4,346 nucleotides of DNA, from the IMG/VR virus record IMGVR_UViG_2711768005_000011; one strand, given 5' to 3'. Both the position numbers and the translations under genes were made by a program. Positions 1,488-2,986 of the stretch are shown in pieces. Position 1 is the first letter of the stretch, and the number at the start of each line of letters is the position of its first letter. The notes under the pieces are model-generated. The model searched no databases. It had not been told where the DNA came from and saw only the letters and a list, made by a program, of their open reading frames with translations. Source of the DNA: a virus (taxonomy: Duplodnaviria; Heunggongvirae; Uroviricota; Caudoviricetes).

Positions 1488-1786
1488 TTATACCTGCGAT
1501 ACGTTATACCATGTTCCGTTAATTAACTTTTGTATTGGTCTGAATACTGCCGGATCATCACCATCGACTTCACCGATAATACCAAGCCCCGTGATTACAT
1601 GGCCTGATTTTTCATACATCACGCCTTTCTTCATGGTCTAAACAACTCGTGTGCCAAGTCTGACATCTCTCACATAGCGGGAATCAAAGTTACCGTAATC
1701 CGAGGGATTAACACGTCCCGTAATATTTATGGTTTTATTACTTTGAATGCTTCCGGAGACAAAGCGCATAACATGGACGTTATTAG
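1488..1786 (-). pseudogene. Side tail-fibre alternative cassette, C-terminal portion (downstream of the IS5 insertion), with an in-frame amber codon
   Basis: Same frame as the fibre segment on the other side of IS5 once IS5 and one TTAG copy are removed. Reads NNVHVMRFVSGSIQSNKTINITGRVNPSDYGNFDSRYVRDVRLGTRVV, then TAG (1640..1638), then [49 protein letters not shown], then TAA at 1490..1488. The conserved C-terminal motif lies beyond the amber codon. Confidence 0.7.
1783..1786. repeat. IS5 target-site duplication, left copy (TTAG)
   Basis: TTAG immediately left of the IS5 inverted repeat; identical TTAG at 2983..2986. IS5 is known to make 4-bp duplications at YTAR-type targets. Confidence 0.85.
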
Positions 1787-2982
1787 GGAAGGTGCGAACA
1801 AGTTCCTGATATGAGATCATCATATTCATCCGGAGCGCATCCCAGAGGGACATCATGAGCCATCAACTCACCTTCGCCGATAGTGAATTCAGCACTAAGC
1901 GCCGTCAGACCCGAAAAGAGATTTTCCTCTCCCGCATGGAGCAGATTCTGCCATGGCAGAATATGACCGCTGTCATCGAGCCGTTTTATCCCAAGGCGGG
2001 CAATGGCCGACGGCCCTATCCGCTGGAGACCATGCTGCGTATTCACTGCATGCAGCATTGGTACAACCTGAGCGACGGTGCCATGGAAGATGCCCTGTAC
2101 GAAATCGCCTCCATGCGCCTGTTTGCCCGATTATCCCTGGATAGCGCCCTGCCGGATCGCACCACCATCATGAATTTCCGCCACCTGCTCGAGCAGCATC
2201 AACTGGCCCGTCAATTGTTCAAGACCATCAATCGCTGGCTGGCCGAAGCAGGCGTCATGATGACCCAGGGCACTTTGGTGGATGCCACCATCATTGAGGC
2301 ACCCAGCTCTACCAAGAACAAAGAGCAGCAACGCGATCCGGAGATGCATCAGACCAAGAAAGGCAATCAGTGGCACTTTGGCATGAAGGCCCACATTGGT
2401 GTCGATGCCAAGAGTGGCCTGACCCACAGCCTGGTCACCACCGCGGCCAACGAGCATGACCTCAATCAGCTGGGTAATCTGCTTCATGGAGAGGAGCAAT
2501 TTGTCTCAGCCGATGCCGGCTACCAAGGAGCGCCACAGCGCGAGGAGCTGGCCGAGGTGGATGTGGACTGGCTGATCGCCGAGCGCCCCGGCAAGGTAAA
2601 AACCTTGAAGCAGAATCCGCGCAAGAACAAAACGGCCATCAACATCGAATACATGAAAGCCAGCATCCGTGCCAGGGTGGAGCACCCGTTTCGCATCATC
2701 AAGCGGCAGTTCGGCTTCGTGAAAGCCAGATACAAGGGGCTGCTGAAAAACGATAACCAACTGGCGATGTTATTCACCCTGGCCAACCTGTTTCGGGTGG
2801 ACCAAATGATACGTCAGTGGGAGAGATCTCAGTAAAAACCGGAAATAACGCCAGAAATGGTGGAAAAAATAGCCTAAATAGGCTGATTCGATGTGTTTAC
2901 GGGAAAAAAATCGGCCCAGATCCGCGAAATTTTAATCAGCGAGTCAGCTTGGGAAGAAATGACCTGCTTATTCGCACCTTCC
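1787..2982 (+). mobile_element. IS5 insertion sequence, complete copy (~1.2 kb)
   Basis: Terminal inverted repeats GGAAGGTGCGAACAAG (1787..1802) and CTTATTCGCACCTTCC (2967..2982, 15/16 match as reverse complement). Flanked by TTAG direct repeats. Encodes a 326-aa InsH-type transposase. Confidence 0.9.
1855..2835 (+). CDS. insH: IS5 transposase InsH (DDE transposase, IS5 family), intact, 326 aa
   Basis: Track [39 protein letters not shown] ... [14 protein letters not shown] is near-identical over its full length to the E. coli IS5 transposase as I recall it. It lies inside an element with IS5 inverted repeats. Confidence 0.95.
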
Positions 2983-2986
2983 TTAG
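2983..2986. repeat. IS5 target-site duplication, right copy (TTAG)
   Basis: TTAG immediately right of the IS5 right inverted repeat; matches 1783..1786. Confidence 0.85.

Follow-up and report, generated by a model that had tools for sequence, protein, structure and literature searches.

The window analysed here is the whole 4346-bp draft contig CWVK01000234.1 (assembly GCA_001256455.1, apparently fragmented), and its locus is a decayed lambdoid prophage remnant beside the trp operon, with two opposed tail-fibre cassettes. The end of an IS600 element (IS3 family; 1..105, minus strand), which is also the contig end and has a second IS copy match within the eight complete chromosomes described below, cuts off the plus-strand cassette, leaving the last ~96 codons of the tail fibre (106..394, with 99.7% tail-fibre homology from base 106) and an intact open reading frame (ORF) for a tail-fibre assembly protein of 175 aa (396..923, plus strand; Pfam Caudo_TAP, 7.9e-37). 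The inverted, invertase-proximal variable cassette lies on the minus strand with its own intact assembly gene (952..1485, 177 aa; Caudo_TAP, 4.8e-34), and the two assembly genes share 159 nt of inverted homology. Its tail-fibre gene is a pseudogene in two pieces: a C-terminal part (1488..1786), which aligns with the C-termini of the E. coli NCTC86 tail fibre and P2-like gpH and contains the stop of the original gene (1488-1490, minus strand) as well as an in-frame TAG nonsense codon (1638..1640, minus strand; CAG, Gln, in relatives), and an N-terminal part that spans the stretch between crossover site and insertion point (2987..3596, minus strand; Pfam gp37_C on the rebuilt protein). Further right are a 26-bp Gin/Pin-type crossover site (TTCTCGTAAACCGAGGTTTTAGATAA; 3597..3622, plus strand), the sole copy in the window, and a Pin-like serine invertase fragment of 60 codons followed by TGA (3677..3859, plus strand; Pfam Resolvase N-terminal domain), a pseudogene. 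The 3' part of a gene for a class I SAM-dependent methyltransferase (4058..4346, minus strand) then runs off the contig; it maps to positions 12779-13447 (minus strand) of L008, one of the eight chromosomes, where Methyltransf Pfam matches are found, and is annotated as a methyltransferase in E. coli matches.

Three smaller observations concern the right-hand side of the locus. A short remnant after the invertase fragment (window 3677-4003) looks like the end of an assembly gene (…APDIEWPTNPVRE, then a stop). A ~147-bp stretch right of the same fragment (about 3906-4052; L008 13676-13823) has a second copy, 89% identical, ~600 bp further on in sister genomes, where it lies close to a fragment of a tail-fibre assembly gene. 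The right-hand limit of the window falls within the methyltransferase gene, with no visible cause in the sister loci examined.

Between the two parts of the inverted cassette lies a complete 1196-bp insertion sequence (1787..2982, plus strand) that matched, at 100% identity over its full length, elements annotated as 'IS5-like element ISKpn26' in E. coli ML35, in YZ_2_2 and on a Salmonella IncHI2 plasmid. It starts with the terminal inverted repeat of the transposase-start side (GGAAGGTGCGAACAAG; 1787..1802, plus strand; the same termini were found in 8 other ISKpn26 copies) and finishes with a second repeat (2967..2982, minus strand) whose reverse complement, GGAAGGTGCGAATAAG, agrees with the first at 15 of 16 positions; the pair was also recovered by an independent repeat search of the window. 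By direct reading, identical TTAG tetramers adjoin the element on either side (1783..1786 and 2983..2986), and the 28-mer junction sequence of the filled site is GGACGTTATTAGGGAAGGTGCGAACAAG. An earlier, sequence-only reading of this DNA had placed both inverted repeats and both TTAG copies, and every one of its coordinates proved exact to the base. The element encodes an intact 326-aa transposase (1855..2835, plus strand, antisense to the tail-fibre cassette) with Pfam matches to DDE_Tnp_1 (124 bits) and DUF772, a score of 367 bits against the NCBIfam IS5 family transposase model NF033581 (cut-off 140), and the same sequence as WP_000019448.1, annotated in ML35. With a DDE transposase, both terminal inverted repeats and a 4-bp duplication at a YTAR-type site, it belongs to the IS5 family; its ends and its transposase ORF are intact, and the copy looks active. 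ISKpn26 itself has been described as a 1,196-bp member of the IS5 family generating a 4-bp direct repeat, which was CTAG at insertions in K. pneumoniae acrR (PMC8023600).

The minus-strand reading, interrupted by the element (ORF 2874-3449), runs …GDGNLDVYA and then continues into IS-derived codons. When 1787-2986 (the element plus one TTAG) is deleted, the minus-strand frame is restored as …GDGNLDVYANNVHVMRFVSG…; the Ala codon, which occupies 2987-2985 as the sequence stands, becomes GCT formed from 2987, 1786 and 1785, and the codon after it is AAT (Asn, 1784-1782). The joining of GDGNLDVYA to NNVHVMRFVSG in one frame, as had been claimed from the letters alone, was thus reproduced. For annotation, the element should bear the label ISKpn26, and 2874-3449 and 1638-1856, the two ORFs crossing the IS junctions, are to be treated as artefacts.

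The pre-insertion state of the locus could be compared directly with existing genomes. Using the ORF beside the IS600 end (window 80-394), we retrieved eight complete chromosomes of ~4.8 Mb (L007-L014), and to all of these the excised window (3146 bp) aligned end to end at 99.94-99.97% identity, free of gaps and with one or two mismatches each; the mismatches fell only at window positions 506, 791, 4104 and 4126, none of them inside the cassette. At the empty site these chromosomes read …GGACGTTATTAGCATAAACATCC… with one TTAG (the related locus L001 likewise has one TTAG), the sequences either side of the pre-insertion junction being …GGACGTTATTAG and CATAAACATCC…, and ISKpn26 was absent from the 20-kb loci of the eight empty-site genomes. 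The more distant E. coli NCTC86 (94% identical) has an empty site too. At the protein level, the rebuilt 308-aa cassette was unbroken across the DVYA/NNVHVM junction when aligned with the NCTC86 tail fibre (98% identity) and with gpH of the P2-like phages vB_EcoM-569R9 (87%) and L-413C (84%). Eight chromosomes and NCTC86 therefore preserve the uninterrupted site with one target copy and no bases gained or lost, and the insertion is simple, with no host base lost or gained. The sequence-only reading had proposed a simple insertion with no associated deletion and an exactly reconstructible pre-insertion sequence, and had named a break at the junction, on alignment with tail-fibre homologues, as the observation that would speak against it; both proposals held, and the alignment stayed contiguous in all three homologues. 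Although two random tetramers match by chance with a probability of 1/256, the target duplication is not a chance match, given the 100% identity to ISKpn26 over 1196 bp and the single-TTAG empty site in the eight chromosomes. Given the 100% identity between the element and copies found elsewhere, and the empty site in all eight close relatives, the insertion appears to be recent and strain-specific. An exact-protein look-up placed the two junction ORFs on the source contig only and gave no second instance of the insertion, whereas a neighbouring ORF of 104 aa has entries in 450 blocks of the collection. Searches for the filled junction in metagenome contigs and for the 23-bp left flank in species-representative genomes gave 0 matches each.

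A matching duplication is not a property of every copy of this element. Among eight ISKpn26 copies sampled elsewhere, the 4-bp flanks were equal in five and unequal in three; tetramers beside these other copies included CTAG, TTAG, CTAA, ATAA and CTTG. The unequal, YTAR-like flanks were CTAA/TTAG in E. coli ML35 (L015), TTAA/CTTG in FJ_Ec_21 (L018) and TTAG/CTAA in CE12-1 (L020), and presumably reflect later recombination between copies or adjacent deletion. As 3/8 copies lack equal flanks, the matching duplication in the window is informative on the history of that particular copy.

Two of the near-identical empty-site genomes point to the lineage from which the window came: GCA_002442535.1 is Shigella sonnei CFSAN030807 (PMC11594029), and CP109775.1 was reported in an S. 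sonnei study (PMC10579285). The 99.9% identity and the IS600 junction that the window has in common with the empty-site genomes suggest that its source was probably S. sonnei as well.

We then considered what state the target was in when the element arrived. The codon at 1638-1640 is CTA in the window and CTG in NCTC86 (plus-strand letters); NCTC86 and both phages encode Gln here. The resulting TAG also ends the upstream ORF in the empty-site chromosome L008, and ORFs of equal size occur in most other empty-site genomes; since the TAG is common to empty-site genomes, it predates the insertion of ISKpn26. The rebuilt gene also has a one-codon in-frame deletion near window 3151 (minus strand, …EFYTTRKP…), leaving two Thr instead of the three present in NCTC86 and both phages, a loss that may be neutral. 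The cassette was already a pseudogene before ISKpn26 inserted. That excision restores the frame is correct, as described above, yet the gene so rebuilt is not intact, the in-frame TAG having preceded the insertion.

The machinery around the cassette is in a similar condition. A search of the window for crossover sites, allowing up to 3 mismatches, gave one match (0 expected by chance), whereas in each of the related loci, L001 and L002, the cassettes are bracketed by two copies in inverted orientation. Similarity to NCTC86 stops just beyond the crossover site, at about base 3626. The invertase fragment matches the Pfam Resolvase N-terminal domain (2.9e-15) over profile positions 2-69 of 145 only, and NCTC86 has a similar recombinase fragment. 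IS600, complete in L008 (8763-10027; 99.9% to annotated IS600), has flanks AAC and ATT and therefore no 3-bp duplication; it abuts the plus-strand cassette at base 105/106, and its immediate left-hand neighbours in complete sister genomes are phage lysis genes. The missing duplication and the position of the lysis genes indicate that an IS600-associated deletion took the constant tail-fibre part together with all head and tail (morphogenesis) genes; the partner crossover site was lost in the same way. Segment orientation is alike in all eight genomes and the window, as is expected for a frozen switch, and the homologous cassette of NCTC86, found in the flipped arrangement and fused to a constant N-terminus, shows the former working of the system. 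Of the components of a functional Din-type switch, the window has the two opposed cassettes, each comprising a fibre C-terminus and an assembly gene, and lacks the second inverted crossover site, an intact serine invertase and the constant N-terminal part. On these grounds the inversion system is defunct, a fossil, and the term 'silent cassette' used in the sequence-only reading is apt for the position (an inverted cassette beside the invertase) and inappropriate for a working switch, given IS600, the one crossover site and the truncated invertase.

Alternative explanations concern the name of the element, the reality of the insertion and its consequences for a phage. The sequence-only reading had called the element IS5, which holds at family level and fails if canonical IS5 is meant. 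IS5 of K-12 (IS5A/insH1) shares with the window element its family, its organisation, the 16-bp inverted repeats (GGAAGGTGCGAAYAAG), a 326-aa transposase (319/325 aligned residues, or 98%, are identical between the window protein and InsH1) and 4-bp YTAR-type targets. In nucleotides, however, the window element is only 91.6% identical to IS5A, with 5 gap positions, an agreement of ~99% in the centre that drops to 73-89% at both ends, and a length of 1196 bp against 1195 bp; nucleotide near-identity and length together are those of ISKpn26 and not those of IS5A, and the copies 100% identical to the element carry the ISKpn26 annotation. That the element is canonical IS5 of the K-12 insH type is accordingly very improbable. 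K-12 itself offers a related observation: the MG1655 copy in a lom-like gene of a prophage (lomR; L021, NZ_CP032667.1 2453805-2455000) is of the ISKpn26 type, 99.7% identical to the window element, and the PGAP label is ISKpn26 both for window-type elements and for this copy; as it is not IS5A, K-12 carries both variants.

Could the element instead be a repeat that the assembler joined chimerically into a site which is empty in reality? The window makes up a whole 4.3-kb contig of an apparently fragmented draft, and the junction ORFs were found in no other assembly. A search of complete E. coli genomes with the whole window gave no record covering 80% or more, so that collection does not contain the source. 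Against a chimera, both junctions coincide exactly with the ends of the IS, and the element is bordered by a duplicated 4-bp target of YTAR type, which misassembly would not create; the contig also breaks at multi-copy IS600, which would suggest that repeats were not freely bridged during assembly. An assembly artefact is therefore exceedingly unlikely. We give just as little credence to the idea that a spare receptor-binding cassette was still working when the insertion inactivated it, so that a live phage had its potential host range altered. Its appeal lies in the NCTC86 homologue fused to a constant tail-fibre N-terminus, in functional P2-like phages with an 84-87% identical C-terminus and in the intact assembly gene adjacent to the cassette, but the TAG stop is already present in empty-site sister genomes, those genomes lack a constant region and, on the left side of IS600, any head or tail genes, the crossover site is single and the invertase is truncated.

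Together, these results make it nearly certain that ISKpn26 transposed into a TTAG of an already non-functional tail-fibre cassette in a decayed lambdoid prophage of an S. sonnei-type chromosome. From what is known of the family, the DDE transposase would have made a 4-bp staggered cut at the YTAR target, and repair of the gaps would then have duplicated the 4 bp. No phenotype of the insertion would be expected, since the target was already dead (TAG stop, non-expressed orientation, partner site and constant part gone, invertase reduced to a stub). What the locus offers is a textbook IS insertion whose pre-insertion state is provable base for base; lying in a non-functional prophage remnant, it matters little, and it adds one more case of IS-driven prophage decay in Shigella. 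The insertion might also serve typing, as a strain marker in S. sonnei. In Klebsiella and E. coli, ISKpn26 occurs abundantly on multidrug-resistance plasmids. That the element was assembled through in a fragmented draft suggests one or few ISKpn26 copies in the source genome, and we raise, as a tentative and on balance doubtful suggestion, that the contig records a very recent arrival of ISKpn26 in an S. sonnei lineage; if true, the chromosomal insertion could mark plasmid-to-chromosome IS traffic or a sublineage.

Comparison with known systems places each component of the locus. Like the invertible tail-fibre segments of Mu (G/Gin), P1 (C/Cin) and e14 (P/Pin), the window has two opposed cassettes with assembly genes, and its serine-recombinase remnant lies in the position and direction expected from the adjacent recombinase gene of Din-family systems; the 26-bp crossover site resembles gix/pix. 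It differs from those systems in its one crossover site, its 60-codon invertase and the deletion of its constant region, as well as in the damage to both cassettes, one being truncated by IS600 and the other carrying the TAG stop and ISKpn26. A comparable insertion was found in E. coli 364_BP0073 (NZ_OZ121069.1, L002 3004-4198), where a P2-like prophage carries an IS5-group element within one of its invertible tail-fibre cassettes. As in the window, its 4-bp duplication is clean (CTAG) and the frame is restored on excision; unlike in the window, the element is canonical 1195-bp IS5, the cassette is the expressed one, an intact invertase adjoins it and the site lies ~170 bp from the crossover site rather than ~610 bp. 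This insertion is independent of that in the window, and an insertion hot spot common to the two was considered and rejected, as site and target tetramer differ. With ISKpn26 (the ISfinder name) the window element agrees in nucleotides, terminal repeats and 4-bp duplication, with no difference within the element. This is a known element with known behaviour in a known kind of target; what is new here is the insertion site only, a tail-fibre cassette remnant of an S. sonnei-type chromosome.
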